From an uncultured Candidatus Saccharibacteria bacterium (lineage in GTDB: Bacteria; Patescibacteriota; Saccharimonadia; Saccharimonadales; CAYLGV01): a DNA stretch of 64,000 bases. Within the stretch, counting starts at the first letter, position 1, and each line of letters starts with the position of its first letter. The notes beneath the pieces are model-generated. The model was not told the DNA's origin. It did not search any database and was given only the letters and a program-made list of their open reading frames with translations. Positions 2,577-54,617 of this stretch are shown in pieces. Position numbers and translations under genes: made by a program. The stretch covers positions 109,738 to 173,737 of the forward strand of contig CAYMZG010000002.1 of NCBI GenBank assembly GCA_964394925.1. Direction: 5' to 3'.

Positions 2577-2582
2577 GGGACT

Positions 2583-5428: not shown

Positions 5429-5872
5429 ATGGCTACGAAGCAGTCCACGCAGAAGAACGGGCAACGACCTGGCCGCAAGCCAGGTACGAAGATGACCGAT
5501 GAGCACAAGGCGGCGCTTGCCGCCGGTCGGGAGTCAGGCCGAGCTGTGAGGGCGTACCTCCAGGCACTTGAGGATCACCGGCCAAGACGCGGCCGGAAGC
5601 GCACACCAGAGAGCATCCAGGCCCGGCTGGCCAAGATCGACGACCAGCTTGCCGGAGCCGATCCTGTCAAGCGGCTGAACCTGGTCCAAGAACGTCTCGA
5701 CCTCATCGCCGAGCAGGATGCGCTCAGCCAGACGACAGATCTGGCGGCGCTTGAGCAGGACTTCCGGAAGCACGCCAAGGCGTACAGCCAGAACAAGGGC
5801 ATTACCTACGCCGCTTGGCGAGAGGTCGGCGTACCGGCAGACATCCTGAAGGCTGCCGGCATCACGAGGTAG
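5429..5872 (+). CDS. hypothetical basic/coiled-coil protein, possible DNA-binding tail
   Basis: ATG 5429 has GAGGAG 6 nt upstream. The N-terminus is Lys/Arg-rich. The C-terminal ITYAAWREVGVPADILKAAGI resembles actinobacterial conserved hypotheticals. Confidence 0.5.
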   Translation: MATKQSTQKNGQRPGRKPGTKMTDEHKAALAAGRESGRAVRAYLQALEDHRPRRGRKRTPESIQARLAKIDDQLAGADPVKRLNLVQERLDLIAEQDALSQTTDLAALEQDFRKHAKAYSQNKGITYAAWREVGVPADILKAAGITR

Positions 5873-6036
5873 CTTGAGCGTCGGGTGACCGGACGCTCCA
5901 CGACGGTGGCCCCGGTGGCGCCTGATCCCACCCCTTTCTTAACGTCAGGCGTACATCGTTTGCGGGAACGGCGACCTTCGGCCCCTCCACCACCCGGAGG
6001 TCGCTGCTCCTGCGGGGCCCAGGATTGGTTGAGAGG

Positions 6037-6927: not shown

Positions 6928-7073
6928 GCCACAACCTGTGCCGCGAACGCCGGATGCTTGCTTGGCTGAGGGAGGCCTGCTACGCCTCCGATGAGGGCGA
7001 GCCTTGAGGCAGGCTCACGAGCCGGACGCTGGTGAACCGTCACTCAGCGTGATGCCCGTCCTATGCTTCAGCA

Positions 7074-7883
7074 GTGGACGGGAGCCTTGAGAACATCGCC
7101 GATGTCCTTGAGCAAGCCTCGCCGCAGCGTCGAGCGCTGCTTGAGGCGGTGGCTGCCTTGTCTGAGGTGCATGTTCCGCGAGTGCTGCAGCTCGTCGAGC
7201 GACTGCAGCAGGCAGTCGCTGTCGAGTCGCTGACGCCCGACCATCCGATCTTCACGAACGAGTGGGTCGACCGGTTCGCCATCCGGCTGCAGGTCCATCA
7301 CGCCACGAACCTCGCACCCCTGAACCGTACTGGTTTCGAGGACGCCTTCACGGAGTGCTGCGAGGCAGCGGGCATCCCGGTCGAACCTGCCACCAGTGCG
7401 ACCAACCGGTTTTGGGACGTGAAGGTCGGTGATCTTCACGCGTCGCTCAAGACCGAAGGCTCGCAGGCGATCGCACCGGACTTCATCCACATCTCCAAGC
7501 TGTCGGAAGCGGCATGGATTCAGGACGTGCGTACGGCGACGGCCCGCCGCGACAAGACCTTGGAGCTTTTCTCGACGTACCGAAGCCTCGTCGACGTCAT
7601 CTACATGCTCAGGATCTTCAAGGCGCTCAACCCGATCAGGTACGAACTGGTCGAGATCCCCGTCGACCTGTTCGACCCGATCCAACAGCTCAGTCGCAAC
7701 GATTTCACCGCCGACGCCCCGAGCATTCTCATTCCCCCTGGAAGCAACCCTCCCGACTACCGCCTTCGTCTCGACCGGTCGGACGCCAAGATTACGATTG
7801 CCCGGCTTCGGAAGGATCGGTGCCATGTCCATGCGGTGTGGCTGGTCCACACGTCCTCAAGCGGCACTCTGGCCGAGGACTAG
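7074..7883 (+). CDS. putative type II restriction endonuclease partner of the methyltransferase
   Basis: It is divergent from the MTase across 146 bp. GC3 bias supports the + frame over the antisense ORF 7068..7850. FWDVKVGDLHASLKTEG could be a PD-(D/E)xK-like D...SxK core. No family was recognised. Confidence 0.45.
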   Translation: MDGSLENIADVLEQASPQRRALLEAVAALSEVHVPRVLQLVERLQQAVAVESLTPDHPIFTNEWVDRFAIRLQVHHATNLAPLNRTGFEDAFTECCEAAGIPVEPATSATNRFWDVKVGDLHASLKTEGSQAIAPDFIHISKLSEAAWIQDVRTATARRDKTLELFSTYRSLVDVIYMLRIFKALNPIRYELVEIPVDLFDPIQQLSRNDFTADAPSILIPPGSNPPDYRLRLDRSDAKITIARLRKDRCHVHAVWLVHTSSSGTLAED

Positions 7884-8495
7884 CTGATCCCAGCCGGCAA
7901 CGAAGGCCGCCGCTTGCATGTGCAGCACCGGCTCGATGTCACGACCGTCGGTGCGCTGCTGCCAGAGCTTGCCTCGGTGAACATCGAGCAGTGCGATCGC
8001 CGGACCGCCGATTGACGGCCCGAAGTGCCGGTCAAGGAGGTACAGCAACGGGTTGGCGACCCGTTGCGTCAACGTGAGCTTCTCCTTCAGGTGCAACTTC
8101 ACGATGGTGTCAACGCCGTTGATCCGCAGCAGCCACTCAGGGTTCACCCTGACCTGCAGCCGGTCGTGCGTCCATGTCGCGGGCTTTGGCAGCCCGACGA
8201 ACTCGATCGTCTTGCGGCCCCAGAAGCGCTCGTAGCCCTTGCAGGCCGACTGGTACTGCTCGGCGCGGTTGTCCTTGGCGCCTGCGCTCACTTGACGAAG
8301 CAGCTCTCGACCGCCGCCTCGACGGTGGTTCTTCTCGACGTCCTCACGCCAGCGTGACCAGAAGTCAGCCGACGGCGAGTAACCCTGTTCATACTGGCGT
8401 CGGATCTCGCGGACCTTGGCGAGTTGGCCGAGGGGATCGCTGACGACGAAGTCGCCGAAGCGGGTCATGCTGATCACGATGGGCTTGTTCGCCAC
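7857..8495 (-). CDS. hypothetical protein (orphan, no motif recognised)
   Basis: 212-aa ORF with balanced, protein-like composition. Its 3' end overlaps the 3' end of 7074..7883 by 27 bp. Confidence 0.5.
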   Translation of the reverse strand: MANKPIVISMTRFGDFVVSDPLGQLAKVREIRRQYEQGYSPSADFWSRWREDVEKNHRRGGGRELLRQVSAGAKDNRAEQYQSACKGYERFWGRKTIEFVGLPKPATWTHDRLQVRVNPEWLLRINGVDTIVKLHLKEKLTLTQRVANPLLYLLDRHFGPSIGGPAIALLDVHRGKLWQQRTDGRDIEPVLHMQAAAFVAGWDQLVLGQSAA

Positions 8496-8651
8496 GATGA
8501 GCCTCCAAACGGAGCTGCGGGCTGGCCCGCAGTGAGAGCCGATCTGACTCCTGAGCCGATCCTAAGCAGGGGGTGTGACACGGAAGCCGGGAGGAGAGGC
8601 TTGGACGGTGCGCTCTACCCGTCCTGACCAGGACGGACGTAGGATCAACCC

Positions 8652-8939
8652 GTGCCGGAGAATCCTCGGAAAGACGCCTTCAAGGTCCTGATCATGGAGC
8701 GGATGCGGGCCAGCAAGAACCAAGCGGTCGCGAAAGATGACCTGATCGCTCACGGCCGCGCTGAGCGGCCCGAGCTGTTCGATGACGGCGAAGCGTGCTT
8801 CCCCGGTTGCAAGGGCCGGCACCCGAAGTGGCGCCACGAGTTCGATCGGGCAATCTACGACCTCACACAGACGAGACCGCCGAAGATGGAGACTGTCGAG
8901 GGCCGTCGGGGCTTCTACTGGCTGGGGAGAGGTGGCTAG
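8652..8939 (+). CDS. small winged-helix-like protein (Mrr_N-like)
   Basis: GTG 8652 has AGGA 7 nt upstream (alternative ATG at 8694). HPKWRHEFDRAIYDLTQ...GRRGFYWL resembles the N-terminal wHTH of restriction-system proteins. Confidence 0.4.
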   Translation: MPENPRKDAFKVLIMERMRASKNQAVAKDDLIAHGRAERPELFDDGEACFPGCKGRHPKWRHEFDRAIYDLTQTRPPKMETVEGRRGFYWLGRGG

Positions 8940-9361
8940 CGACGGCGCCCACGTCGAGCCGGTCTGATTGCGATCCCGGCGTCAGCCAGGTACTTCCGCA
9001 CGGTCTTGCTGTCGAAGCCGAGCTTGGCCCCCACCTGCTTCAGGCTCAGGCCGCTCTCGTACAGACGGGTTGCTTCCTTGACCTCATCAGGCGACAGCCC
9101 GATTGGCTGTCGACGCGAGACCCCGTGCCGATCAAGGTGTGCCAAGACCGTGCTCTTGCTGATGCCGAACAGCGCCACGAGTTCCTTCACGGTGGCACCC
9201 TCCTGGTACGTCAGGGCCAGTTGGGCGCTCTCATCGTCAGTGAGGCGGCGGTACGGCAGCAGCTTCGGATTGGTACGTGTCGGCCGGTCTGGCATGTTCT
9301 TGGGCACCGGCACGGCCACGAGCGCTTGCAGGGTGTCGAGGTGTTCGCGAAGCTGGCCCAT
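8936..9361 (-). CDS. DNA-binding protein with two resolvase-type HTH repeats (start uncertain: 9361 or 9295)
   Basis: The two HTH units are ATVKELVALFGISKSTVLAHL and LSLKQVGAKLGFDSKTVRKYL. The track ORF start at 9406 runs into low-GC DNA and is unlikely. No catalytic recombinase domain is present. Confidence 0.6.
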   Translation of the reverse strand: MGQLREHLDTLQALVAVPVPKNMPDRPTRTNPKLLPYRRLTDDESAQLALTYQEGATVKELVALFGISKSTVLAHLDRHGVSRRQPIGLSPDEVKEATRLYESGLSLKQVGAKLGFDSKTVRKYLADAGIAIRPARRGRRR

Positions 9362-9493
9362 CAGGAGTACCAATGAAAATGCCTCACAGTAGTGGGGCTT
9401 TTTCATTGATTGAATCGATAAAACCTACAATTGTTACATTCCTCACAGCAATAACTCATATTGTTGTCATACTGTAGTAGTGGAAGGAGTCTT

Positions 9494-9675: not shown

Positions 9676-9765
9676 GGAAGGGTGCAGGAGTGGTTGAACT
9701 GGACGGTCTCGAAAACCGTTGTGCGGGCAACCGTACCGAGGGTTCGAATCCCTCCCCTTCCGCCA
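9676..9765 (+). tRNA. tRNA-Ser (anticodon CGA), CCA encoded
   Basis: Hand-folded cloverleaf. Acceptor GGAAGGG/CCCTTCC, D stem CAG/CTG, anticodon stem ACGGT/ACCGT with loop CTCGAAA. It has a long variable arm, T arm GAGGG-TTCGAAT-CCCTC, discriminator G and CCA. Confidence 0.93.
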
Positions 9766-9918
9766 ATGTTTGTAGCTCAGCCGAAGGCTGGGATATAAAC
9801 ATTGCTGTATGAGGAGGGATGAAGAACCCATGGCACGAAGTGGCAGGGTTCGGCGCAGCGAGGACGCACACAGGTGTTTACACCGAGTACGCCGCAGCAA
9901 AGGAGGCCAAAGGCTGAT

Positions 9919-9937
9919 ATCCCTCCCCTTCCGCCAA
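9919..9937 (+). repeat. 19-bp exact direct repeat of the tRNA-Ser 3' end (att-like)
   Basis: ATCCCTCCCCTTCCGCCAA occurs at 9748-9766 (T arm/acceptor/CCA of the tRNA) and again at 9919-9937. Confidence 0.9.
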
Positions 9938-30252: not shown

Positions 30253-30919
30253 TAGACAAAGTCTCTATTACACGGTACATGCGACCAAGCGCAGTATACC
30301 AAGCCAAGATCGCAATGATCGGAACAATAATTGCTTCCCAACCAAACAGCAACATAATGACCAAAAGGAACATGCGCACCTCAAAGCTCGCAATGCCGCC
30401 CCGGAAGGTTTTATTAAGCTGAGATTTAGCAACTTTACTGCCGCGTAGCACGGCTTCACCCCAGGCATTAATGTAGCTAGTGAGCAACGATCCGCCCAGG
30501 GCCACAACGAGCAATACCATGTACGTGGCATTACTGTACCAACATGTCTGACCAATACCGGTGCAGGTGGCCGTTGTGCTAGCCGCCGCACCAATTAGTC
30601 CAATGTAAACCAATACTTCTTTAATGCGATCACTAACCGAGTCAAGGAACATGCCACTATGGCTGGTGCGACCTTGCAGTCTTGCTAGTTCGCCGTCGAG
30701 GGTATCGAATAAGCCGAATATAAGAAGTAAACCACCTGCCCAAATAGGGTGATGAGTGGCAATCAGCCAGGCAATCGGTGCGTGGGCAAGCAGACCAATC
30801 ACCGTGACCATGTTGGGCGTAAGGGCGCCACCACTAACCTTATTCAGAACTTTGGCCACTCGTCGCATGAAGGCACGAACGCCATTACGTACTACATCTA
30901 ACAGTTTCATTGCTACCAT
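30239..30919 (-). CDS. CDP-alcohol phosphatidyltransferase
   Basis: DTLDGELARLQGRTSHSGMFLDSVSDR matches D-G-x2-A-R-x8-G-x3-D-x3-D. Confidence 0.8.
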   Translation of the reverse strand: MVAMKLLDVVRNGVRAFMRRVAKVLNKVSGGALTPNMVTVIGLLAHAPIAWLIATHHPIWAGGLLLIFGLFDTLDGELARLQGRTSHSGMFLDSVSDRIKEVLVYIGLIGAAASTTATCTGIGQTCWYSNATYMVLLVVALGGSLLTSYINAWGEAVLRGSKVAKSQLNKTFRGGIASFEVRMFLLVIMLLFGWEAIIVPIIAILAWYTALGRMYRVIETLSNVQD

Positions 30920-30942
30920 TATAGCCTACCGAGCGTTATCCC

Positions 30943-31065
30943 TGTCACGCCCTCGTCCACTACCTTGAGTAGGGGGTTTGCTATAGCCAATCAGGAAAGC
31001 CAAGAACGAATGTTCTTTTGGCGGCTTTCCGTACCCTACGAAGGGTAGTGGACGAGGGTGTGACA
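30943..31065 (+). repeat. hairpin-tip repeat element, copy 1 (core sense on + strand)
   Basis: Conserved core GGGGGTTTGCTATAGCCAATCAGGAAAGCCAAGAACGAATGTTCTTTTGGCGGCTTTCCGTACCCT. It is enclosed by 32-nt locus-specific arms (30943-30974 / 31034-31065) containing 2 G.U pairs and a tandem GA/AG internal loop. Confidence 0.9.
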
Positions 31066-31089
31066 AAACGTGTGAGCTATAATGTGGCT

Positions 31090-31764
31090 ATGGCGCGAAA
31101 AACGGTGAACCGTGAGGTGCTCGTTGCATTACTGGTTTCTAACCTGGTGACAGTGGTGCTGTTTTTGCTGCGCGTCATCGTTACGAAAGATACGCGTTAC
31201 TGGTTCTTATTCTGGAATTTATTACTGGCGTGGGTGCCGGTATTGCTTGCCGGGCTACTGGTGAAGCAACTGGCCAAACGTCGCTGGTCAGACCCCGTAC
31301 CGCTTTTACTGACAGTCCTTTGGTTAGCTTTTCTGCCAAACAGTTTTTACCTTATGAGTGATCTTATTCATTTGCAAAACACTGGTGAAATAGGCTTGTT
31401 GTATGATGCTGTGCTGTTTTTGTCATGCATTTGGAATGGGGTGGTGGCAGGCATGCTCAGCATTTACTGGGTACACATCGCATTATTGAAACGCCGAACG
31501 GCGCGTTTTGCGTGGGGCATTATTAGCGCCATATTTTTGCTTACCAGCATTGCCATTTACTTAGGGCGTAATTTACGATGGAATACTTGGGATATTCTGG
31601 CTAACCCAGCAGGGCTTTTGTTTGATGTCTCAGAACGCATCATAAATCCACTGGCTCACCCCCAAATTTTTGTTACATCATTGACCTTTTTTATCTTACT
31701 TACGAGCATGTATTACGTGATCTGGACGTTTGTCCGTGCCTTGCAGGTTAAACCCCGTCGCTAA
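31090..31764 (+). CDS. DUF1361-like integral membrane protein
   Basis: Start at ATG 31090; the track start at 31018 lies inside the repeat element. FLPNSFYLMSDLIHL motif. Confidence 0.65.
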   Translation: MARKTVNREVLVALLVSNLVTVVLFLLRVIVTKDTRYWFLFWNLLLAWVPVLLAGLLVKQLAKRRWSDPVPLLLTVLWLAFLPNSFYLMSDLIHLQNTGEIGLLYDAVLFLSCIWNGVVAGMLSIYWVHIALLKRRTARFAWGIISAIFLLTSIAIYLGRNLRWNTWDILANPAGLLFDVSERIINPLAHPQIFVTSLTFFILLTSMYYVIWTFVRALQVKPRR

Positions 31765-31782
31765 TCTGTTATTATTAGACGC

Positions 31783-33429
31783 ATGAAGGAGCAATTAATT
31801 GCTGCAATCACGACAGCAGGCAAGAGCCTATACGATGTCGAAGTTGACGTTAATTTAACGCGCCCCGAAGAGCAGTTCGGTGACTTTGCAACTAACGTTG
31901 CTCTACAACTTAGTAAACCAGTCGGTAAAAATCCTCGCGAGATAGCTGAGGCGATTGCGGCTGAGCTCAAAAAAACGTTGACCACACAAGTTAAAGACGT
32001 AACGGTGGCTGGCCCTGGATTTATCAACATTACGCTGATTGACGAAGCACTTGCCAATACAGCTTCTAACCGAACGCAGCCGTATAGTGGCAAAACCGTT
32101 GTTATTGAGACTAACAATCCTAACCCATTTAAGGCCATGCACATTGGGCACGCCTACAACGCTATTATGGCGGACACCCTAGCTAACCTGATTGAAGCAG
32201 GCGGTGCAACCACAAATCGTGTGAGTTATCACGGTGATGTGGGCTTGCATGTTGGGAAGAGTATGTACAGTTTGCTTCGGTATGTGGATGGTGACATATC
32301 CAAGCTAGAGGCCATACCTACTGAAGAGCGCAATAGCTTTATGTCGAAAATGTACGCGGAAGGTTCCAAGGCGTACAAAGAAGATGAGCAGGCCAAAACA
32401 GAGATTGATGCGCTTACCAAAGCATCGTTCACGCGTGAAGATCCGCTCTATGCGGCCGTGTACGACATATGTAAAGACTGGAGTTTTGCTGAACTCGATG
32501 CCATTGTGGCGCGCCTTAACAATAAGCCGACCGTCAAGCGTTTCTTGGAGAGTGAAGCCGATGGTCGTGGCGTGGCGATTGTTAAAAAGAATGTCCCCGA
32601 GGTGTTTTACGAAAGCGACGGTGCGTTGGTGTTTCCAGGCAGCAAGCATGGCAGCTTCGATAATGTGTTTGTCACCTCGAGAGGCTTAGGGCTATATGGT
32701 GCACGCGACCTTGGTCTCATGCAACTGAAGGACGAAGCGTTTCACGCTGAAAAAAGCTACATTGTGACTGCCGAAGAGCAGCGTGACTATTTTAAGGGTG
32801 TGATTGCCGCTGCCGAACTGTGTTTGCCTGAACTTCGCGGTGTAACAGTTAACATTTCGCACGGCACGGTTAAATTATCGACAGGCAAAATGAGTTCTCG
32901 TTCAGGTGATGTTATTGAAATTGCCTGGCTGTTTGACAGAATTGGCGAAGCAATCGCTGAGCGTGGTAGTACTCCCAACGATGAGTTAATTGCTGGCGCC
33001 CTGCGTTACCAATTCCTCAAAGTTCGCATCGGTGGTGATGTGGTGTTCGACATAGGTGAGTCGGTAAGTATTCAAGGTAATAGCGGTTCTTATTTGCAGT
33101 ATGCCCATGCTCGGGCGTGCTCGATTCTTGCCAAGGCAACAAACAGTAATGATGGTGCATTAAACGAACTTCAGCCAGATGAGCGTAGTTTGCTGCGAAA
33201 AATGAGTGAATATACCGAGGTGGTAGACCTGGCGATGGGTGAGCTCATGCCACATCATATTTGCACCTACCTCTATGAGTTAGCCCAGGTGTTTAATCGG
33301 TTCTATGAGCATAATCGGGTGCTCGAAGATGAGCGAGAGGCGATTCGGCTTGAACTTGTGCGCCGTTATGCGGCTATCCTGCGTGATGGCCTTGCGTTAT
33401 TAAACATTCCGACACCGGAGCGTTTGTAA
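31783..33429 (+). CDS. argS: arginine--tRNA ligase
   Basis: AMHIGHAYN (HIGH) motif, 548 aa, ArgRS-like anticodon-binding C-terminus. Confidence 0.9.
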   Translation: MKEQLIAAITTAGKSLYDVEVDVNLTRPEEQFGDFATNVALQLSKPVGKNPREIAEAIAAELKKTLTTQVKDVTVAGPGFINITLIDEALANTASNRTQPYSGKTVVIETNNPNPFKAMHIGHAYNAIMADTLANLIEAGGATTNRVSYHGDVGLHVGKSMYSLLRYVDGDISKLEAIPTEERNSFMSKMYAEGSKAYKEDEQAKTEIDALTKASFTREDPLYAAVYDICKDWSFAELDAIVARLNNKPTVKRFLESEADGRGVAIVKKNVPEVFYESDGALVFPGSKHGSFDNVFVTSRGLGLYGARDLGLMQLKDEAFHAEKSYIVTAEEQRDYFKGVIAAAELCLPELRGVTVNISHGTVKLSTGKMSSRSGDVIEIAWLFDRIGEAIAERGSTPNDELIAGALRYQFLKVRIGGDVVFDIGESVSIQGNSGSYLQYAHARACSILAKATNSNDGALNELQPDERSLLRKMSEYTEVVDLAMGELMPHHICTYLYELAQVFNRFYEHNRVLEDEREAIRLELVRRYAAILRDGLALLNIPTPERL

Positions 33430-33431
33430 CC

Positions 33432-34049
33432 GTGACGATTGTGTTTGACTTTGATGGCACCCTTGCCAACACCTACGGTATTGTATTGTCGTTATATAAC
33501 GCCGAGGCGGCTAACTATGGTTTACGAACTATTAGCGCTGAAGACTGGGAAGCAATCAGGCGCATGCGCTTTAGTGAAATGTTAAAGTTCGCCGGTATCA
33601 AACCGCACCAGGTGCCCAAGTACCTCACCATTGGTAAACAAATTTTAAAAGGGCACATTGAACAGATTGAACTCTTTGACGGCGTGGTTGATATGATCAA
33701 GCGTCTGAAAACAGCCGGTCATGACTTGTTCGTGTTGAGTAGTAATGCCGAGGATACCATTCAGGCAGTACTGGAACGGTACGGCTTGAGTGAGCTGAGT
33801 GTTATGAAGAGCTCAAAACTATTTGGCAAAGCCACTTCTCTAAAACGACTCGTGCGGGTTAATAAGTTGCAGCCAGATCAGGTATGGATGGTGGGCGATG
33901 AAGTGCGCGATGTGGTTGCTGCCAAAAAAGCCGGCATTCACGCCATGGCGGTCACCTGGGGTTTTCACCTAAAAGAGATGCTAGCTCCGGCCAAACCCGA
34001 TGCATATGCCGAAACGCCCGAACAGCTCACCGATTTTTTTGAGAAGTAA
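33432..34049 (+). CDS. HAD-superfamily hydrolase
   Basis: IVFDFDGTL motif I, VLSSN, GDEVRDVVAAKKAG. Confidence 0.8.
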   Translation: MTIVFDFDGTLANTYGIVLSLYNAEAANYGLRTISAEDWEAIRRMRFSEMLKFAGIKPHQVPKYLTIGKQILKGHIEQIELFDGVVDMIKRLKTAGHDLFVLSSNAEDTIQAVLERYGLSELSVMKSSKLFGKATSLKRLVRVNKLQPDQVWMVGDEVRDVVAAKKAGIHAMAVTWGFHLKEMLAPAKPDAYAETPEQLTDFFEK

Positions 34050-34050
34050 C

Positions 34051-34761
34051 ATGGTTGAAGAAATTCAAGACGCCTTAAAGCAAGTCTCCACTCCCGAGAA
34101 AGCTGCTAATTCAACACGTTTTTTTAAGTGTGGCCCAGGCCAATACGGTGAAGGCGATATGTTTATTGGTGTTACGGTGCCTGATCAGCGCAAGATTGCT
34201 CGAGCATATTTTCGCCCGATCCTTTTTAAAGATCTGAAGCGCCTGCTAAAAAGCCCGTGGCACGAAGGGCGTTTAACGGCGCTCCTCATGATGGTGATGA
34301 AGTTTCAAAGGGGCAATGAGGTGACGCGCCGAGCGCTGTTTGATCTGTATATGGACGAAATTGAACATATTAACAACTGGGACCTCGTAGATAGCTCAGC
34401 GCCGTACATTGTTGGACCGTGGCTGGAAGGGAACCCGTATAAAATGAAAGTGCTCAAGCGGCTAGCTCGCTCTGAGGTGTTGTGGGAGCGACGTATTGCC
34501 ATGCTGTCTACGTTTTACTACATCAACAAATGCAATCGTGCCGACGAAGCGCTGCAGATTATTACAATTTTGTTACACGATGAACATGATCTGATTCAAA
34601 AAGCCGTTGGTTGGATGCTCCGTGAAATTGGTAAACGGGTTGACGAGGCTGTTCTGTGCAACTTTCTAAACGAGCATGCGCACAACATGCCACGCACGGC
34701 TCTTCGGTACGCTATTGAACGTCTCACCCCCGAACAAAAAACATTGTATATGCATCAGTAG
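34051..34761 (+). CDS. DNA alkylation repair protein (AlkD-like HEAT-repeat family)
   Basis: FFKCGPGQYGEGDMFIGV and NNWDLVDSSAP motifs. Start at ATG 34051. Confidence 0.75.
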   Translation: MVEEIQDALKQVSTPEKAANSTRFFKCGPGQYGEGDMFIGVTVPDQRKIARAYFRPILFKDLKRLLKSPWHEGRLTALLMMVMKFQRGNEVTRRALFDLYMDEIEHINNWDLVDSSAPYIVGPWLEGNPYKMKVLKRLARSEVLWERRIAMLSTFYYINKCNRADEALQIITILLHDEHDLIQKAVGWMLREIGKRVDEAVLCNFLNEHAHNMPRTALRYAIERLTPEQKTLYMHQ

Positions 34762-34868
34762 TGTCCGTAAGCAGGGGGGTTTGCTATAGCCAATCAGGAA
34801 AGCCAAGAACGAATGTTCCTTTGGCGGCTTTTAAGTACCCTGCGTCGGATGCTGCTGATGCATATACA
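34745..34868 (+). repeat. hairpin-tip repeat element, copy 2 (core sense on + strand)
   Basis: Same core, with TTAA in place of TCC near the 3' end. The 23-bp arms are 34745-34767 / 34846-34868. The left arm covers the last five codons and the TAG stop of the upstream CDS. All three non-WC pairs are G.U on the + strand. Confidence 0.9.
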
Positions 34869-34903
34869 TTTGGCGAGAGTGCGCTACAATATGCGTAAGC
34901 ATT

Positions 34904-36391
34904 ATGAAAACAGCGTTACTCTTGTATCCTCACCAGCTTTATCCTGTGCATGAACTTCCCAAAGTCGACACGGTGGTCGTTATGGAAGATCCACTGTATT
35001 TTGGGCGCGACCAGCAATTTCCACTGCAGCTTCATAAACAAAAGCTCATCTTACATCGTGCGTCATTAAGGCGTTACGTTGAGGAAGTGCTCTGGCCGGC
35101 CGATCTGAAAGTTGAATACATCGACCTGGATGTCTTTATGCAAACAGGGGAAGTGCTCGACCGTGTTAAGGGCGCTGAGCAAATCTTTGTTATTGATCCA
35201 ACTGATGAAGTGTTGACGCGTCGTTTGCTACAGGCACGCCGTGAGCGCACCGACTTACCAAATCTGACCTTCCTGCCAAGCCCTAATTTCTATCTCAAGG
35301 AATCTGAGCTTCGCCAGTTCTTTAAAGAGAGTCACAAGCAACCGTTCGCGGACTTTTATCAGTGGCAGCGCGAGCGTTTCAATGTGCTAATTAGTGAAGA
35401 CTATAAGCCAATTGGTGGCAAGTGGTGTCTGGAGAGCGGCGCACCGCGAAAATTGCCTGCCGAGTTACAATTGCCGAGTTTTCCAGTCTTTGGCGATAAC
35501 TCCTTCGTGACTGATGCCACAAAATGGGTGAACGAACATTTTCCGGATAATCCCGGTAGTACCGATTTTATCTGGCCAACCAACCATGCCGAAGCAGTCG
35601 AGTGGCTTAATGATTTCGTAACAAATCGCCTCGATAGTTATGCTGACTATGCTGCCACGATTGATCCTCGTTCGCCGTGGCTATTCCACAGCCTACTCGC
35701 TAGTAGCGTGAACATTGGCTTACTAACACCTCAACAGATTGTCCAGGCTGCTATTGATCAACATAACAAACAAGCAGTACCACTCGAGAGTCTTGAACTG
35801 TTTATTCGCCAGGTGCTTGGCTGGCGCGAATTTACGCGTGGCCAGTACCTCACTGACGCCCACGAGCTACGAAGCCACAATCCATATGGCCATAAACGCA
35901 AGTTAACTGCCAAGTGGTACCAGGGGACAACGGGGATCCCGCCGTTCGACGACCTTGTTAAAAAACTGCTCGCCCACAGTTATGCCTACCAAGCCGAGCA
36001 ACGCAATGTAGCCGCCAATCTTATGCTGCTGTGTGAAATTCATCCAGATGAGATACAGCGTTGGTTTAGCGAATTATGCCTCGACAGTTACGACTGGACG
36101 GTTGTACCGGCAGTCTATGGGGAGCAGCTGTTCGCTGGCGGGAGCACAGATGGCGTACCGCCCATTAGCCCCAGCGCTGACCTAATGGAAATGAGCCCCT
36201 ACACGCATGATATTTGGGCCGATGTATGGGATGGTCTCTTTTGGCGCTTCGTCGAGAAGCACCAAACAGCCCTCGGTAAAAATCCGCACACTCGACACTG
36301 GGTAGGGCAGCTAAAGAGACTTGATGACAACTACCGACGCATTGTGCATTACCGTGCCGAAGATTTCCTGAATCAGTACACGACGTTATAG
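34904..36391 (+). CDS. cryptochrome/photolyase-family protein (photolyase-related, COG3046-like)
   Basis: 495 aa with LGWREF and C-terminal photolyase-like helices. Confidence 0.7.
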   Translation: MKTALLLYPHQLYPVHELPKVDTVVVMEDPLYFGRDQQFPLQLHKQKLILHRASLRRYVEEVLWPADLKVEYIDLDVFMQTGEVLDRVKGAEQIFVIDPTDEVLTRRLLQARRERTDLPNLTFLPSPNFYLKESELRQFFKESHKQPFADFYQWQRERFNVLISEDYKPIGGKWCLESGAPRKLPAELQLPSFPVFGDNSFVTDATKWVNEHFPDNPGSTDFIWPTNHAEAVEWLNDFVTNRLDSYADYAATIDPRSPWLFHSLLASSVNIGLLTPQQIVQAAIDQHNKQAVPLESLELFIRQVLGWREFTRGQYLTDAHELRSHNPYGHKRKLTAKWYQGTTGIPPFDDLVKKLLAHSYAYQAEQRNVAANLMLLCEIHPDEIQRWFSELCLDSYDWTVVPAVYGEQLFAGGSTDGVPPISPSADLMEMSPYTHDIWADVWDGLFWRFVEKHQTALGKNPHTRHWVGQLKRLDDNYRRIVHYRAEDFLNQYTTL

Positions 36392-36464
36392 CGTACCACG
36401 CAGATATTGACAATTGGCAAGAAATGATACAATAGTAGCCTACGTAATGGAGTAGGACTGGTTC

Positions 36465-36893
36465 ATGGCAGAAGCTAAGAAGACAACCAAGAAGAAACGT
36501 ATTCAGAAGAGTGATGACGGCATGATCGTAACACTGCCGACAGTTAAAGTACCTGGCTGGCTGGAAGGGTTCGTGAGTTTTGTACGCGAACAGGGTGTTG
36601 TCGGCCTCGCCGTTGGTCTTATCCTGGGTGTAGCCGCAAAGTCGGTGATCGACTCACTTGTTAATAACATTTTTAATCCGATCATCGGCTTATTGTACGG
36701 TGGTGGTGACTTCAGTACGAAATACATCTGTTTAAAGCAAGAAATGCAGAATGGCAGCTTGGCTTGCACCAGCAAGCTTGGCTACGGCAGTTTCATTAAC
36801 ACGCTCATCAGCTTCATGATTGTGGCAGCTGTTGTGTATTTTGTGGTGAAAATCTTACGTCTCGACAAGCTTGATAAGAAAAAAGACTCTTAG
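36465..36893 (+). CDS. mscL: large-conductance mechanosensitive channel
   Basis: FVREQGVVGLAVGLILGVAAKSVIDSLVNNIFNPIIG is typical of MscL TM1. 142 aa. Confidence 0.85.
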   Translation: MAEAKKTTKKKRIQKSDDGMIVTLPTVKVPGWLEGFVSFVREQGVVGLAVGLILGVAAKSVIDSLVNNIFNPIIGLLYGGGDFSTKYICLKQEMQNGSLACTSKLGYGSFINTLISFMIVAAVVYFVVKILRLDKLDKKKDS

Positions 36894-36922
36894 ACCCCCT
36901 GAATTTTCGGTATAATAAAGGT

Positions 36923-37021
36923 ATGCAACTAAGTGATGAGGAGTGGCGTCATAAACTCACGCCCGAGCAGTATCGTGTGCTTTGTGAACAGGGAACTGAA
37001 GCCAGGGAGACCAAGGCTTGA
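36923..37021 (+). pseudogene. msrB: N-terminal remnant of methionine sulfoxide reductase B (32 codons)
   Basis: MQLSDEEWRHKLTPEQYRVLCEQGTE matches the conserved MsrB N-terminus, then diverges and stops. TATAAT at 36911-36916. Its TGA overlaps the next ATG (TGATG). Confidence 0.55.
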
Positions 37022-38520
37022 TGGACGACGATCTACGTAATCGATTCCGATCCACGCGCTCGTCTCGCCCCGAACCATATGGTTACGGAAGGCCAACTCG
37101 ACCCGCGCCAAGGCGGACTCCCCCCAAGGCACCGCAACAGCCTGCTCCTAAACCAGTGAAGCCAGTACAAGCACCGCCTCCCAAGCCTAGCCCCGTTGCT
37201 CCTGTGCTCGCCCCTAAGCCCGCCGTAAGTCTCCCATCATACACCCCTGACACTTCTGAAAAATTTGACCTAAAACCAGCGCCCACTAAGAAAATACACC
37301 AAAAAAAGAAGCGTAGTAAAAAGAAGATTCTTATTATTTCATTAATTATCTTACTCATTGGCTTGGCAGGTGCAGGTGGTTATTGGTTCTATGCCAAATC
37401 AAAGAATAAACAGCCCGTTGCGAGCAATCAGCAATCTACTACCCCAACAGACTCCAGCCCACAGCGTAGTGGCACCATAAAGATGGTGGCCGTTGGTGAT
37501 AGCCTCGCGTTCGACTCACTCACTAACGCTGCAAAAAAACCAGACGGCTCATACGATTACGCGCCAATGATGTCTAACTTTACGCCGTACTTCCAAAAGG
37601 CTGATGTTCGGGTATGTAATGAGTCTTCGCCTGGTGGTGGTGAAGCCGATGGCCTCTCCCTCAGCGGTTACCCAACGTTTAACGCTCCACTGGGCTGGAA
37701 CACGAGCTTTGCTACGGCTGGATGTAATGTTATGAATCTGGCCAGTGAACACACTAATGACAAGGGTCAAACAGCTATCAATAACATGTTAAAAAGCTGG
37801 AGCGAGCAGAAGAATATTTTGGCAACAGCTGGGGCAAACAGCAGCACCGACGAGCAAAGCAAAGTCCGCTACTTTACTGTTAAAGATGTTACGTTTGCCT
37901 ATCTGGCATACACTACCACGAGTGCTAACAAAGACGGGCAGCCATACGGCGTAAACATCTATAGCGATAACTTGGCAGACCAACAGATTGGTGAGGCACG
38001 CAAGAAGGCTAACCTAGTAATTGTGAGCATAAACTGGGGATCAGAGAATGGCGTCGATATTTCACCCGAACAGGATAAGATTGCTCAACATTTGGCCGAC
38101 CAAAATGCAGATGTAGTCTTGGGTGGCGGCCCCCGTGTATTGCAACCGGTCAAGGTTTTGAGTGGCAAAAGTGGCCATCAATCACTTGTGTGGTTCTCAC
38201 TCGGCAACTTCCTTAACTCCATGACTGGCGCAAATAATCTGGTAGGCGGCATGGCAATCATGGAATTTGATGCCAATTCATTAAAACTTAATGATCCAAA
38301 ACTTATGCCGGTCTACATGCACTACGAATGGACGGCGCAACAAAAGGCCTCAAATAATGTGGCTGCCCGAACAAACTTCAAGCTGTACCCACTCGATCAG
38401 GCAGAGCCACTGTTACCAAAGTCACAGCTTAATACTTCTGTTGCAGCTCTAACAAGCCAAGCTTCGGCTACAATCACGAAATTTGCCCCCATCAAAATAA
38501 TCACCAGCTCAGAATATTAA
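37021..38520 (+). CDS. CapA/PGA_cap-family metallophosphatase-like protein with Pro-rich N-terminus and TM anchor
   Basis: MVAVGDSL, NLASEHTND and SINWGSEN motifs after a TM helix. Confidence 0.65.
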   Translation: MDDDLRNRFRSTRSSRPEPYGYGRPTRPAPRRTPPKAPQQPAPKPVKPVQAPPPKPSPVAPVLAPKPAVSLPSYTPDTSEKFDLKPAPTKKIHQKKKRSKKKILIISLIILLIGLAGAGGYWFYAKSKNKQPVASNQQSTTPTDSSPQRSGTIKMVAVGDSLAFDSLTNAAKKPDGSYDYAPMMSNFTPYFQKADVRVCNESSPGGGEADGLSLSGYPTFNAPLGWNTSFATAGCNVMNLASEHTNDKGQTAINNMLKSWSEQKNILATAGANSSTDEQSKVRYFTVKDVTFAYLAYTTTSANKDGQPYGVNIYSDNLADQQIGEARKKANLVIVSINWGSENGVDISPEQDKIAQHLADQNADVVLGGGPRVLQPVKVLSGKSGHQSLVWFSLGNFLNSMTGANNLVGGMAIMEFDANSLKLNDPKLMPVYMHYEWTAQQKASNNVAARTNFKLYPLDQAEPLLPKSQLNTSVAALTSQASATITKFAPIKIITSSEY

Positions 38521-38629
38521 CCCCAGCTTATTTATCCCAGGGTACGGAAAGCCGCCAAAGGAACATTCGTTCTTGGCTTTCCTGATTGGCTATAGCAAAC
38601 CCCCTGGGATAAATAAGCTGGGGTTAATA
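38515..38629 (-). repeat. hairpin-tip repeat element, copy 3 (core sense on - strand)
   Basis: The core is in reverse orientation. It is enclosed by a perfect 28-bp inverted repeat (38515-38542 / 38602-38629) that includes the last codon TAT and the TAA stop of the upstream CDS. Confidence 0.9.
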
Positions 38630-38657
38630 CAGAACATGTGGGGTATAATCGGGGCAT

Positions 38658-39221
38658 ATGAGTGACAAACAATACGTTCCAAAGAAGCTACTCTGGGTTG
38701 ACCTAGAGATGACCGGCCTTGACCCAAAAGAAGATGTTATTTTAGAGGTTGCCGCCGAGATTACCGACATAAACTTTCAGACCCTGGCGAGTTATGAGGC
38801 ACGCCTCAAACAAGATCATGACACTGTTGTAAAGCGCATGCAGGCGAACATCTGGTGGAAGGAATTTCCAGCAAACCGTGACCAGTTTATTGAGAAGCTC
38901 GATGAAGGCAAAGCTCCTGAGGTGGTGGAGCAGGAATTAGTTGCGCTTGTTAAGGAGCAATTTGGCGACGACTTGGCCGTTCTGGCAGGCAACTCTATTC
39001 ATAATGACCGAAGTTTTATCTCGCAGTGGATGCCAAATCTTGATTTGCTGCTGCACTACCGCATGCTTGATGTGTCGAGCTGGAAGCTGGTTATGCAAAG
39101 TCGCTATCAAGTACAGTTTGAAAAGCCCGATGTCCACCGTGCCTTCGATGATATTCAAGCCAGCATCGCCGAACTTGATTTTTACCTCGATTGGTTCAAG
39201 AAGCACCAGGATAGTAATTGA
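38658..39221 (+). CDS. orn: oligoribonuclease
   Basis: LLWVDLEMTGLDP, GNSIHNDRSFI and HYRMLDVSS motifs. Confidence 0.9.
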   Translation: MSDKQYVPKKLLWVDLEMTGLDPKEDVILEVAAEITDINFQTLASYEARLKQDHDTVVKRMQANIWWKEFPANRDQFIEKLDEGKAPEVVEQELVALVKEQFGDDLAVLAGNSIHNDRSFISQWMPNLDLLLHYRMLDVSSWKLVMQSRYQVQFEKPDVHRAFDDIQASIAELDFYLDWFKKHQDSN

Positions 39222-39566
39222 ATGGATCATAAAACAGTTGAGACATATGTGCTCAGTATGCCCAATGCCCAGCTGACATATCCATTTGGTGAAGGGGTTG
39301 CTGTGTATAAGGTGAACGATAAAATGTTTGCGCTCATTCAGGAGGGGCGCGAGCCAGTTCGCATCAGTCTTAAGTGCGACCCACAGCTTTCAAAACTACT
39401 TCGAGAACGGTACGAGACGGTTATGGAGGGCTATCATCTAAATAAAAAACACTGGAATACTGTGTTGTTGAGTGGCCAACTCCCCTGGGAGGATATCCAG
39501 GGGCTCATTCGGCACAGCTATGATTTAGTGGCGGGCATAGACGAGGCAGTACCAACTATTGACTAG
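39222..39566 (+). CDS. MmcQ/YjbR-family DNA-binding protein
   Basis: YPFGEGVAVYKVNDKMFALI ... KHWNTV. Confidence 0.75.
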   Translation: MDHKTVETYVLSMPNAQLTYPFGEGVAVYKVNDKMFALIQEGREPVRISLKCDPQLSKLLRERYETVMEGYHLNKKHWNTVLLSGQLPWEDIQGLIRHSYDLVAGIDEAVPTID

Positions 39567-44968: not shown

Positions 44969-47788
44969 GTCTGAGTTGTTCGTTGCTTGAGCCTTGAGCA
45001 TGGTTAGAACGTGTTCACGAGTATGATGATTATTGGCATAGCGCTGTATCTCACGGATGAGTACAAACAAGATGGCTGCGCCAAACGCATAGGCCCAGTC
45101 GACTGCGCTTAACGGGCCTGCCCCAAAGTAGGTGTTAATTATCGGGTTGTAGATAATGTTTAGAACGCAGAACATTGATGCTGCCATGGCAACTGCCAGT
45201 GCGCGGTTATGAAGTTGGTAACGTGTGAATAAACCGCGCCGCGAGCGTCGCTGCAAAATATTCAGTAATTGGCAAAGCACAATGGTGAGGTAGGTAAGGG
45301 CTGTTGCTTTGGCGTACAGGGCAGGGTTGTTGATGTTTACATTTGCCGCCTCAACACCGTTACGGCTGAAGAACAACATAAAGTTTATGAAGGCAAAACC
45401 ACCGATTAAAATACCGCACCAGAGCAGGTCGGTGATGCTGAAACGATTCAAAATATGATCATGCTGATCGCGTGGTTTGTCGCCCATCAGTTCGCCGTCG
45501 GCTTGATCCCAGCCCAAGGCTGCAATCGGGAAGAGCTCGGCTATCATGTCGATGGCCAAGATTTCCATAACCGTTAGGCTCAGTGGCACATGGAACGCTG
45601 CCAGAACCACGAAACTAACCAGGTTAACCACAAGTTCTGCCGAGTTACTCGTAAAGCAACTCAGCGTTGCTTTTTTGATGTTTTGGAAGATTACACGACC
45701 TTGCTGAATCGCTCCAACCAGGGTAGAGAAGCTGTCGTCGAGTAGCACAATCTCGGCCGATTGTTTAGCTACATCGGTACCCGTGCGGCCCATGGCTACA
45801 CCTATGTCAGCGCGCTTGAGAGCCGGCGCATCGTTAATGCCGTCACCCGTTACAGCTACGACTTTTTCGTTGGCTTTTACCAGACCAACAATACGAAGCT
45901 TGTCTTCTGGGCTCACGCGACTAAAGATCACACCACCCCTGGTAGCGAGGCGTAATACTCTGGCATCATCGAGTTGTCGGAGTTCCTCGCCACTTACCAC
46001 AATGATGTCCTGACCGGGTTTTGCCAGGCCGGCTCGTTTAGCAATAGCTTCTGCAGTAAGGGCAAAATCTCCAGTTACAATCGAAATGTTAATGTGTGCA
46101 TCATGAGCTGCTTTCATGGCTGCTGGTACTTCGTCGCGTAGCGGATCAACCATGCCAACCATGCCTAGCCAGGTGAGCCCCGTCTCGGCTTCTTCCATAG
46201 TGAGTTTCTTAAGATTAGTGCCTTTCGGAAGAACCTTATAAGCATAGCCAAGGTTTCGCGAAGCTTGTTTAGCCCACTTGTGGTTCAGGCGATCGATCAT
46301 GTCTCGGTCGGTTTGCGTCATTTTGCGGTCGCGCTGGCTGAGCCAGAGCTTATTACAGCGGTGCAAAATGCTTTCGGGTGCGCCTTTTACAAAGATATAA
46401 TGCTCGCCATTCTTGCCAAATGAACGCACAGAGCTCATGCGTTTTCGAGCAGAGTCAAAAGCAAACTCCTTGAGCTCAGGCGATTGTTCGTCTAGGATCT
46501 TAGGATCAAGACCAGCTTTTTGCGTGAGTGTCAGTAGCGCTCCCTCAGTTGGATCGCCAACCACATACCACACGGCGTGTTCATCATCTGGGGGGCTCAC
46601 GGTAGCATTACTAGCAAAAGCGCCCGCCGAGAAGAACAACGAGAAATTCTCCAGTTCTTTGGCGCTCAGACTCTTGCCGTGTCGGTTGGTAATGGTTCCG
46701 TTTGGTTCGTAACCAGTGCCGTTTACGCCAAAAACCGAATTGCCAATTAATAGGCGTTCAACAGTCATTTGGTTTTTGGTTAAGGTGCCGGTTTTATCGG
46801 TACAAATAACTTTGGTGGCCCCAAGTGTTTCTACGGCCGATAGTTTTTTAACCAAAGCACGGGCTTTGGCAAGTTTGCTGGCGGCTCGGGCCAGGGCAGT
46901 GTTAATTTCGGCTGGCAAGCCTTGTGGAATGAGTGAACTGGCAATTGCAATAGCGTAGAGGAAGGCGTTCTTAATGCCAAGCCCGAGGTAAATGCTGGCA
47001 GGGAGCAGGAACAAACAGAGAAAAACGGTGCCTTGTGTTACACGCCCGGCAATATGATTCAACTCGCGCTGCAAGGGGCTAACGTCTGCCGTGGTGTCGG
47101 CGCTCAGCGAGGCAATGCGCCCAAGTTCGGTCTGCATGCCAGTGGCCATGGCAACACCAAAGCCGTGACCGGTTGCCACTGTGGTGCCCATAAATACCAA
47201 GTTGTGACGGTTGGCGAGCTCCACATTACCGCTCATGGGATGCGTAAATTTTCGCGTGGGGTTTGATTCGCCGGTTAACGCAAAGTCATTGGTAGAAAGT
47301 TCCGACTCTGTGAGCAAGCGCAAGTCAGTTGGAACACTGTCACCCTCTTCTATATATACTATGTCACCCGGCACTAGTTCGCTGGCGGCTACCGTTACGA
47401 TAGTGCCATTGCGGCGTACTTTGGCTTCGGCAACCACTAATCGCTCGAGGCTTTCCATCAGCTTCTCGGCTTTATATTCCTGCGAAAAGCCAATGATGGT
47501 GTTGAACATGACAAGGGCCAACAGGACCACCGCAGTATGAGAGTCACCGAGTAGCAGACTGATCACCACACTGACAAGCAGCAAAACAATCATTAAATCC
47601 TTAAACTGACGAGCGTATTTATGAAACGCGCTCTCGCGGTTTAGCTCTTGTAACTTATTTGGACCGTATTGCTCGAGTCGTTTATGGGCTTCGGCTGGCG
47701 CCAAGCCATGTTGAAGATCAGACCCTAACTCTTTGAGAACTGTCTTTGTATCTTGTCGGTAATAGGCTAGTTGTTTATCGCCCACCAT
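44951..47788 (-). CDS. cation-transporting P-type ATPase (P2-type-like)
   Basis: CTDKTGTLT phosphorylation motif, TGES, GDGINDAP, 945 aa with about 10 TM helices. Confidence 0.9.
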   Translation of the reverse strand: MVGDKQLAYYRQDTKTVLKELGSDLQHGLAPAEAHKRLEQYGPNKLQELNRESAFHKYARQFKDLMIVLLLVSVVISLLLGDSHTAVVLLALVMFNTIIGFSQEYKAEKLMESLERLVVAEAKVRRNGTIVTVAASELVPGDIVYIEEGDSVPTDLRLLTESELSTNDFALTGESNPTRKFTHPMSGNVELANRHNLVFMGTTVATGHGFGVAMATGMQTELGRIASLSADTTADVSPLQRELNHIAGRVTQGTVFLCLFLLPASIYLGLGIKNAFLYAIAIASSLIPQGLPAEINTALARAASKLAKARALVKKLSAVETLGATKVICTDKTGTLTKNQMTVERLLIGNSVFGVNGTGYEPNGTITNRHGKSLSAKELENFSLFFSAGAFASNATVSPPDDEHAVWYVVGDPTEGALLTLTQKAGLDPKILDEQSPELKEFAFDSARKRMSSVRSFGKNGEHYIFVKGAPESILHRCNKLWLSQRDRKMTQTDRDMIDRLNHKWAKQASRNLGYAYKVLPKGTNLKKLTMEEAETGLTWLGMVGMVDPLRDEVPAAMKAAHDAHINISIVTGDFALTAEAIAKRAGLAKPGQDIIVVSGEELRQLDDARVLRLATRGGVIFSRVSPEDKLRIVGLVKANEKVVAVTGDGINDAPALKRADIGVAMGRTGTDVAKQSAEIVLLDDSFSTLVGAIQQGRVIFQNIKKATLSCFTSNSAELVVNLVSFVVLAAFHVPLSLTVMEILAIDMIAELFPIAALGWDQADGELMGDKPRDQHDHILNRFSITDLLWCGILIGGFAFINFMLFFSRNGVEAANVNINNPALYAKATALTYLTIVLCQLLNILQRRSRRGLFTRYQLHNRALAVAMAASMFCVLNIIYNPIINTYFGAGPLSAVDWAYAFGAAILFVLIREIQRYANNHHTREHVLTMLKAQATNNSDLLGPL

Positions 47789-47816
47789 ATTACGCTTAAG
47801 TATACGCTAAGTTCAT

Positions 47817-47932
47817 GGCTTGAAACACCCCTTGGCTTGGAGGGTACTTATAAGCCGCCAAAGGAACATACGTTCTTGGCTTTCCTGATTGGCAATAGCA
47901 AACCCCCTCCAATCCAAGAGGTGATTCAAGCC
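47817..47932 (-). repeat. hairpin-tip repeat element, copy 4 (core sense on - strand)
   Basis: Reverse-oriented core with three substitutions. The 28-nt arms (47817-47844 / 47905-47932) have 3 mismatches. It lies between the divergent P-type ATPase and polA genes. Confidence 0.9.
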
Positions 47933-47981
47933 AGCCTGTTTACATAAACATAAGAGTAATAGGTAGCGTATACTGTAAATA

Positions 47982-54242: not shown

Positions 54243-54617
54243 CTATTTCTTTTTGGCAGGGGCTTTTTTAGCTGCAGGTTTCTTAGCAGGAGCCTTCTTG
54301 GCAGCCGTCTTTTTTGGTGCTGCCTTGGTGGCAGTTGTTTTCTTCGCAGCCGACTTCTTAGCAGGAGCACTTTTCACGCCCGCTGCCTTAGCAGCTTTTG
54401 CAAGTTGACGCTTTTTACGAGCAACCTTGTTCTTGTGCATTACGCCTTTTTTACCGGCTTTGTCGAGGGCACTTTGGGCTTCTGAGTGGCTGGCACCAGT
54501 CAAACTAGACTGAAAAGACTTAAGAGCACTCTTGAGCGAGCGCTTTGTCTTAACGTTTCGAACGGTCGCTTTGCGCGAGACGCGGACGCGTTTTTTAGCT
54601 GATTTAATGATAGGCAT
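54243..54617 (-). CDS. rpsT: 30S ribosomal protein S20 with Lys/Ala/Pro-rich C-terminal extension
   Basis: MPIIKSAKKRVRVSRKATVRN... followed by a ~50-aa AKKPAAKK-type tail. Confidence 0.9.
   Translation of the reverse strand: MPIIKSAKKRVRVSRKATVRNVKTKRSLKSALKSFQSSLTGASHSEAQSALDKAGKKGVMHKNKVARKKRQLAKAAKAAGVKSAPAKKSAAKKTTATKAAPKKTAAKKAPAKKPAAKKAPAKKK

Follow-up and report, generated by a model that had tools for sequence, protein, structure and literature searches.

A family of interspersed hairpin elements in Saccharibacteria, with a conserved core and arms that mirror neighbouring gene ends

Four hairpin copies in the 64-kb window

The 64-kb window (the whole stretch of DNA that was analysed) carries on its + strand a gene for an AlkD-like DNA alkylation repair protein (34051-34761; 236 aa; PF08713; 100% identical to P0001), with a DPRP gene downstream, and a PGA_cap (CapA-like) gene (37018-38520), both of which end within the stem of a hairpin. 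The closest relatives of the AlkD-like protein belong to Candidatus Saccharibacteria and Patescibacteria. Using a direct-repeat scan and a 23-nt core probe, four copies of a core of about 66 nt were found in the window, with the aligned sequence GGGGGTTTGCTATAGCCAATCAGGAAAGCCAAGAACGAATGTTCYTTTGGCGGCTTT(CC/TAA)GTACCCT and with flanks that are unrelated between copies. Every core is enclosed by an inverted repeat of 22-29 bp that is unique to its site; the cores are 96-100% identical, whereas the arms show no similarity across sites and are shared in part among copies at one orthologous site. Arm lengths were fairly uniform (17-29 bp) across the copies examined. The termini of the core pair with each other (AGGG...CCCU), and the core, which folds as a pair of small hairpins side by side, forms the tip of the 22-29-bp stem.

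Copy 1 (30943-31065) has arms at 30943-30966 and 31041-31065 around a core at 30971-31037 (sense +), lies between divergent CDP-OH transferase and DUF1361 genes (the c1 site), and contains two arm mismatches, both of which are G.U on the + strand. Copy 2 (34743-34870) consists of a proximal arm (34745-34767), a core (34774-34841, sense +) and a distal arm (34846-34868), with a site-specific inner spacer at 34768-34773 and 34842-34845. In copy 3 (38515-38629) and copy 4 (47816-47933) the core is in the - sense, at 38539-38605 and 47841-47908, respectively, and the arms are located at 38515-38542 and 38602-38629 (copy 3) and at 47816-47844 and 47905-47933 (copy 4). Copy 4 is flanked by divergent P-type ATPase and PolA genes (the c4 site). 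Around it (47788-47961), weaker complementarity extends past the 29-nt arms into both divergent promoter regions (57 nt at 75%), and may represent a decayed older palindrome.

A chance origin of these repeats is excluded, because the core probe occurred four times against an expectation of 0.00 in the window and the hairpins fold as RNA with z-scores of -5 to -12 relative to dinucleotide shuffles (including -7.8 and -10.4). The GGGGGUUUGC strand was the better folder, compared to its complement, in all four window copies. Nor is the element an assembly artefact, because the same sites are filled by the same element in independent NCBI, ENA, JGI and Logan assemblies. It does break and mis-join metagenome contigs of these organisms: contigs break within the core, L011 both starting and ending in one, and contig L013 is a chimera that passes from an AlkD-site copy to a c4-site copy via the shared core.

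No intrinsic terminator was reported at the elements in a terminator scan of positions 30500-39500, the 22-29-bp stems being without a T tail, and no promoter-like site was found inside the core in a promoter scan. Several element-flanking genes have TATAAT-like boxes upstream of their start codons (30905-30935, 31075-31092 and 38640-38660); because these boxes are only 6-9 nt from the start codons, they suggest that the flanking genes have leaderless or very short-leader mRNAs. Among the ORFs scanned in the 64-kb window, no reverse transcriptase, HUH enzyme or recombinase was found near any copy. The remaining scanned genes have housekeeping or unknown functions, several ORFs are without a Pfam match, and none is linked to the element.

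Of transposases, the window has just an ISL3 fragment (7-870), which is truncated at the window edge. The fragment belongs to an unrelated island of high GC content (1-9400; 0.60-0.63 vs approximately 0.49 elsewhere), which also carries an N6/N4 DNA methylase gene (6037-6927, - strand) and a haem-oxygenase-like gene, ends beside a tRNA gene, and was probably acquired horizontally. The 3' end of the tRNA gene at 9676-9762 (ATCCCTCCCCTTCCGCCA) is repeated directly at 9919-9937, with an imperfect inverted copy at 9786-9820, and these repeats (9676-9937) look like a remnant of the att sites of an integrative element. A 45-nt unit (CTTCTTAGCAGGAGC-like, with a period of 15 nt) is also repeated at 54249-54398, in eight copies that overlap one another; this is probably low-complexity sequence within a gene.

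Gene ends and mirrored arms in related lineages

The AlkD-like ORF stops with TAG at 34759-34761, and the last 17 nt of the gene lie within the left (proximal) arm of copy 2, TGTATATGCATCAGTAGTGTCCG, which reads TG TAT ATG CAT CAG TAG plus 6 nt. The right (distal) arm is CGGATGCTGCTGATGCATATACA, and the 23 stem positions comprise 20 Watson-Crick and three G.U pairs. A promoter-like site for the downstream DPRP gene (34863-34890, + strand; TATACA-16-TACAAT), in a region kept in all relatives, begins in the stem: its -35 hexamer (TATACA) is the outer end of the distal arm and may set the limit of distal-arm growth. The arm coordinates and sequences that the original prediction gave for copies 2 and 3 were exact on re-inspection, as was the observation that one arm is built from the end of a gene, namely the AlkD end with its TAG in copy 2 and the TAT TAA of the capA-like gene in copy 3.

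The comparison drew on 10 related Saccharibacteria loci. The AlkD site was examined in ten lineages by taking contigs with AlkD orthologues and extracting the region from the gene end to the start of the next gene. Carrier-clade AlkD proteins are 75-83% identical to that of the window; as no relative exceeds about 83% AlkD identity, the comparison pairs no fresh insertion with an immediate empty site. Relative to AlkD, the core is in + orientation in the window and L017, and in - orientation in L012/L014, L016, L002, L011 (core shortened and strongly diverged, with the contig stopping inside it) and L007 (a diverged 'type B' core, with arms outside the gene). The site is empty in L006 (46-nt spacer, no inverted repeat), in L010, where CATATACA, the outer distal arm, comes straight after the stop codon and the contig ends at the DPRP start, and in L015 (47-nt spacer), where an outer 6-bp stem is left (TATATG ... 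CATATA). An inner spacer, TCCGTAAGCA-GGGGG ... TACCCT-GCGTCGGAT, is common with substitutions to the window, L017, L016, L012, L011 and L002, being most diverged in L002. Because this spacer is shared among them and absent from copies at other sites, the AlkD-site copies of these at least six lineages are orthologous, old and vertically inherited. On a neighbour-joining tree of the single 236-aa AlkD protein, L010 and L015 are nested among filled lineages, and both keep the outer CATATA(CA); since they are so nested, their empty sites are secondary losses that left relics.

Each distal arm mirrors the gene end of its own genome: TGTATATGCATCAGTAG in the window, AAAAGTATATGCATCAGTAA in L012, TATATGCATAGGTAG in L017, ATGAGCTAG in L016 (where the protein is one codon shorter) and ATGAATGTCTGA in L002. 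In a cross-comparison of the five genomes, the longest exact run of every distal arm was with its own gene end (14, 12, 15, 9 and 15 nt), against runs of 3-9 nt with the gene ends of other genomes, or 13 nt in the case of the window and L012, which are closely related. Multi-base and length differences between lineages are found mirrored in both arms. Because the copies are orthologous and the differences are multi-base, including length changes, one arm must have served as template for the other since the lineages diverged, in a process that is ongoing; independent point substitutions are an unlikely route to such mirroring. In the clade, all 11 AlkD proteins, from genomes with and without the element alike, are 235-236 aa long and end in YMxx* or YMx*, and outgroup proteins are 2-3 residues longer (YMxLKNx*). 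The last two residues are hypervariable within the clade, a fast change that mirrored copying may explain.

At the PGA_cap site, the outermost 6 bp in the stem of copy 3 come from the last codon and stop of the gene, the left arm opening with the TAT TAA that ends the ORF. The perfect 28-bp arm described in the original prediction is borne out as regards pairing (28/28 complementary), but its inner AGGG/CCCT is part of the conserved core, leaving a site-specific arm of about 24 bp of which 6 nt are coding. PGA_cap proteins end in Y* in every relative, at filled, relic and empty sites alike. The site is empty in L006, L007, L037 and L039, where ...TAY TRR is followed by a short spacer that holds no hairpin; compared with L006, the extra DNA of the window lies exactly between TATTAA and the following 'cag', and terminates in TTAATA. 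The bulk of the arm (CCCCAGCTTATTTATCC) is without a counterpart in the empty sites.

L035 and L036, which share their sample origin, and presumably their genomes, with L012 and L015 (the closest relatives of the window), carry a core-less hairpin at the copy 3 site, TATTGATCC(C) - 16 nt - (G)GGATCAATA, in which the stop codon covaries with the distal arm (TGA/TCA, vs TAA/TTA in the window). The loop of the L036 hairpin aligns to the last core bases (CCCCC) and a diverged right arm (16/25 identical), and because of this alignment the hairpin is a deletion relic, as would be left by loss of the left arm and core. The copy 3 element therefore predates the split from L035/L036, its arm having drifted by approximately one third (36% divergence). 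Because the window arms are 28/28 complementary despite this drift, the two arms have undergone concerted evolution. A tandem duplication of a 10-mer was also considered for the copy 3 arm (shuffle test, p approximately 0.017), and was dropped in favour of the simpler alignment, which explains the relic.

The orientation of the core differs between genomes at three sites. At the AlkD site at least two flips are required on the AlkD tree; at the c1 site the window is opposite to L011, and at the c4 site it is opposite to the chimeric contig L013, in which this site is filled in another genome. L006, L010 and L002 have an empty c1 site. No palindrome was found in L006 at any of three sites, and the empty sites of L006, L007, L037, L039, L002 and L010 have spacers of 23-60 nt and no palindrome. 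The c1-site orthologue of L007 (2930-3015) has a core-less, perfect palindrome of 22 bp (TACCCTTATTATAGCTCATCTG / CAGATGAGCTATAATAAGGGTA). Through it the part of one promoter that runs from the -10 box up to the start codon is repeated in front of the divergent neighbour, such that both divergent genes have identical mirrored -10 boxes and leaders up to their start codons. A growing palindrome may also replace an adjacent -35 hexamer or, as at this site, an entire promoter. Taken together, the sites indicate that copies were gained and lost over time, and, because of the core-less palindrome in L007, that inverted duplication of a flank takes place in these genomes even where the core no longer remains. 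With distal arms that reverse-complement ancestral gene ends, and true empty sites that are without the palindrome, the original proposal that the arms are inverted copies of the neighbouring flank is upheld.

Core conservation, fold and distribution

Orthologous cores are 89-97% identical, whereas the AlkD gene DNA of the same genomes is 71-80% identical, with an identity at four-fold sites of 0.21-0.39 (saturated). Conservation of this degree, where the four-fold sites of the neighbouring gene are saturated, requires that the core is under purifying selection or continual homogenisation. The predicted consensus fold is a three-way junction, with a P1 helix (AGGG/CCCU), a small hairpin centred on CTATAG, and a longer hairpin (GGAAAGCC...GGCUUUCC) that encloses GAAC-N4-GTTC. 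Core types B and B' (shortened) retain the long helix (P3) through a paired change, GGAAAAC/GUUUUCC instead of GGAAAGCC/GGCUUUCC, which could itself have arisen by template switching. Covariation within the core was otherwise almost nil, type A copies being too invariant to be informative.

In most tail-to-head copies the core is antisense to both neighbouring genes. Because of this, and because the core flips, it is doubtful that the core acts as a strand-specific RNA; that it works as double-stranded or cruciform DNA is as likely. As for the arms, at the AlkD site all eight transition mismatches (from about six independent events) are G.U in the sense of the AlkD mRNA, whatever the orientation of the core. 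Counted relative to core sense, the G.U bias is 8 vs 4. This uniform G.U character with respect to the mRNA makes it probable that selection acts on the stem as a 3' stem-loop in the RNA of the upstream gene.

The motif GAAC-N4-GTTC is present in all four window cores (31004-31015, 34807-34818, 38561-38572 and 47864-47875), with the inter-copy variation falling in N4, and once within an unrelated gene in the window. We take it to resemble the Gram-positive LexA (Cheo) box, and two window copies are upstream of DNA-repair genes (DPRP and PolA). Core types B and B' and the promoters of empty sites are without the motif, and a LexA box was retained as a weak lead only.

In a scan of one genome per species, the core was present in one Saccharibacteria MAG alone, in three copies with different arms each; two Arthrobacter matches from the same scan were chance occurrences inside coding sequence. 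Among JGI metagenome contigs, a 22-mer gave no matches and a 19-mer gave 17 chance matches, none with the full core. No core was found in viral contigs (core pattern scan) or in phage and plasmid records (BLAST). Searching the whole window against Rfam 15 at gathering thresholds returned tRNA only, and at E <= 10 copy 1 gave chance-level matches (best E = 0.09; 16.5 bits vs a gathering score of 75 bits). The family thus seems restricted to a narrow clade, as far as the searched collections show, and, as no published description of such a Saccharibacteria element was found in a literature search, it appears to be undescribed.

Origin and maintenance of the mirrored arms

Template-switch (quasi-palindrome) mutations have been the subject of earlier work in bacteria. 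Such hairpins are expected to invert at the tip and to lose their centre by deletion, in line with the instability of palindromes and with hairpin inversions in chloroplasts. We propose, with moderate confidence, that the arms of this undescribed interspersed family are kept by intrastrand template switching and that its stem probably serves as an RNA 3' stem-loop. The self-complementary core would nucleate a hairpin in single-stranded DNA during replication, and intrastrand template switching (quasi-palindrome correction or expansion) would copy one arm onto the other, thereby keeping the stem perfect and extending it outward until growth halts at constrained sequence, that is, the coding region on one side and the -35 of the next promoter on the other. 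Selection would determine that the gene end serves as template and the spacer as recipient, and inversion of the tip and deletions would follow from the same hairpin geometry.

This proposal rests on what we read as a template-switch signature, because adjacent sequence is copied as its reverse complement, changes are clustered and mirrored, stems stay perfect in spite of drift, and outward growth is halted by constrained sequence. Pre-existing local sequence makes up one arm (at two sites, the final codons of the upstream gene with its stop), and the other arm is its reverse complement, which the empty sites do not have; clustered multi-base changes are found in both arms, as in the AlkD-site arm pairs, the TAA/TTA vs TGA/TCA exchange and the 28/28 pairing of copy 3. 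According to previous reports, template switching can create perfect stems in a single event, and can repair, homogenise and expand inverted-repeat arms (PMC8794818, PMC13100816). The original prediction had coupled the mirroring to insertion, by a mechanism not familiar from any bacterial repeat family; in that form the inference lacks support, as copying at the AlkD site has gone on after insertion and template switching has already been described (PMC8794818, PMC13100816). Compensatory changes under strong pairing selection could mimic part of the signal, and template switching gives no account of the spread of a 66-nt core that has no terminal repeats, nor of the high degree to which the core is conserved.

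Insertion-coupled duplication of the target, in which the core arrives by a mechanism linked to fold-back synthesis, so that some 25 nt of one flank are copied in reverse orientation, and later evolution only maintains the result, is the alternative closest to the original prediction. It would account for distal arms that are reverse complements of the ancestral flank, for the exact fit of the extra copy 3 DNA, which ends in TTAATA, into the gap between TATTAA and the empty-site 'cag', and for the fairly uniform arm lengths (17-29 bp). Yet all datable copies are old, and with arms re-copied long after insertion the present arms are uninformative on the insertion moment; moreover, most of the copy 3 arm (CCCCAGCTTATTTATCC) has no match in empty sites and no candidate enzyme lies near any copy in the 64-kb window, and we therefore hold this explanation to be tentative and rather unlikely. 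A related idea, that the core is an active module which installs itself by fold-back (inverted flank duplication), or recruits a dedicated activity that rewrites the spacer to match the upstream gene end, we regard as distinctly unlikely. The reverse order of events, with the core inserting into loops of pre-existing palindromic terminators and the arms being older than the element, is very unlikely. In its favour are the core-less hairpins at the copy 3 site of L035 and L036, the 6-bp stem at the AlkD site of L015 and the 22-bp palindrome at the c1 site of L007. Core-less hairpins at two sites in relatives correspond to one refuting condition of the original prediction, but phylogeny and leftover core and arm bases mark them as deletion relics rather than older terminators, given that L015 and L010 are nested among orthologous filled sites and that the L036 loop consists of the last core bases and a diverged right arm. 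More distant empty sites (L006, L007, L037, L039, L002, L010) have no palindrome in their 23-60-nt spacers, and the arms do not take the form of a G+C-rich stem with a trailing T run.

Structured non-coding RNA genes, with a long closing stem that evolves under selection by ordinary compensatory substitution and an incidental overlap with gene ends, would fit the better folding of the sense strand in four of four window copies, the conservation of the core where silent sites are saturated, the compensatory change in P3 (GGAAAGCC/GGCUUUCC vs GGAAAAC/GUUUUCC) and the G.U character of arm mismatches. We nevertheless find this improbable, given a core that lies antisense to both neighbours in most tail-to-head copies and flips between orthologues, the lack of space for a promoter of its own, a G.U bias that tracks mRNA sense and not core sense, multi-base and length differences that are mirrored together, no Rfam family match and almost no covariation in the core. 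An alternative raised in the original prediction, that the AlkD and PGA_cap genes owe new C-termini and stop codons to the element, could be read from the longer outgroup AlkD proteins and the hypervariable last two residues in the clade. The short AlkD end is also found in L006, with no trace of the element, and in L007, where the arms are outside the gene, which makes donation unlikely for AlkD, and the invariance of ...Y* across filled, relic and empty sites rejects it for PGA_cap; as a whole the idea is scarcely credible, and the YMxx*/YMx* and Y* ends are taken as ancestral.

The design of the element, a conserved centre with variable arms, is the reverse of that of REP elements, MITEs and attC sites. 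Like REP/BIME/RIP elements and the REPINs of proteobacteria, it is interspersed, extragenic, hairpin-forming and placed between genes, and RIP elements also have a conserved centre flanked by inverted arms. Unlike in REP/REPIN, where the arms are the conserved repeat and the centre is variable or short, the arms here are site-unique and the centre is conserved, and no RAYT gene or HUH protein was present among the ORFs scanned in the 64-kb window. MITEs (Correia/NEMIS, RUP, ERIC) are similarly small, non-coding, multi-copy and intergenic, sometimes overlapping gene ends; the Saccharibacteria element differs in being without conserved terminal inverted repeats above 4-6 bp (AGGG/CCCT being the sole conserved core ends) and without a direct target-site duplication, its flank repeats being inverted, and its arms are not carried between sites. 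Integron attC sites are likewise imperfect palindromes at gene 3' ends that keep structure rather than sequence, but have conserved outer R/L boxes around a variable centre, and no integrase is encoded in the window. Invertible promoter switches (invertons) occur in both orientations within one population and have an internal promoter and conserved inverted repeats that a nearby invertase recognises; in the present element orientation differs between genomes, the arms are not conserved, no recombinase lies nearby in the 64-kb window and the core has no promoter-like site. Small hairpin-associated inversions in chloroplast non-coding DNA also flip the loop between close lineages while the stem is unchanged; those loops are short and single-copy, and not a conserved repeat family. 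With template-switch quasi-palindromes the element shares the reverse-complement copy of adjacent sequence, multi-base 'compensatory' changes, perfect stems and outward arm expansion (PMC8794818, PMC13100816), and it is distinguished from them by being a multi-copy family with a conserved non-palindromic tip, by the use of gene ends as template, and by repeated action. A literature search did not find template switching acting on a multi-copy conserved-tip family that uses gene ends.

If the core did install itself by fold-back or recruit a dedicated rewriting activity, the mechanism of insertion or maintenance would be one undescribed for any bacterial repeat, and long gene-end hairpins would be generated on demand in a minimal genome. 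A function for the 66-nt core is probable, as it is more conserved than the surrounding protein-coding DNA in a very small genome. Under the favoured reading, maintenance by template switching, the family would provide a natural record of this process building and maintaining 25-bp stems from coding sequence at several sites and in several lineages, which would be stronger evidence than isolated cases of template switching.
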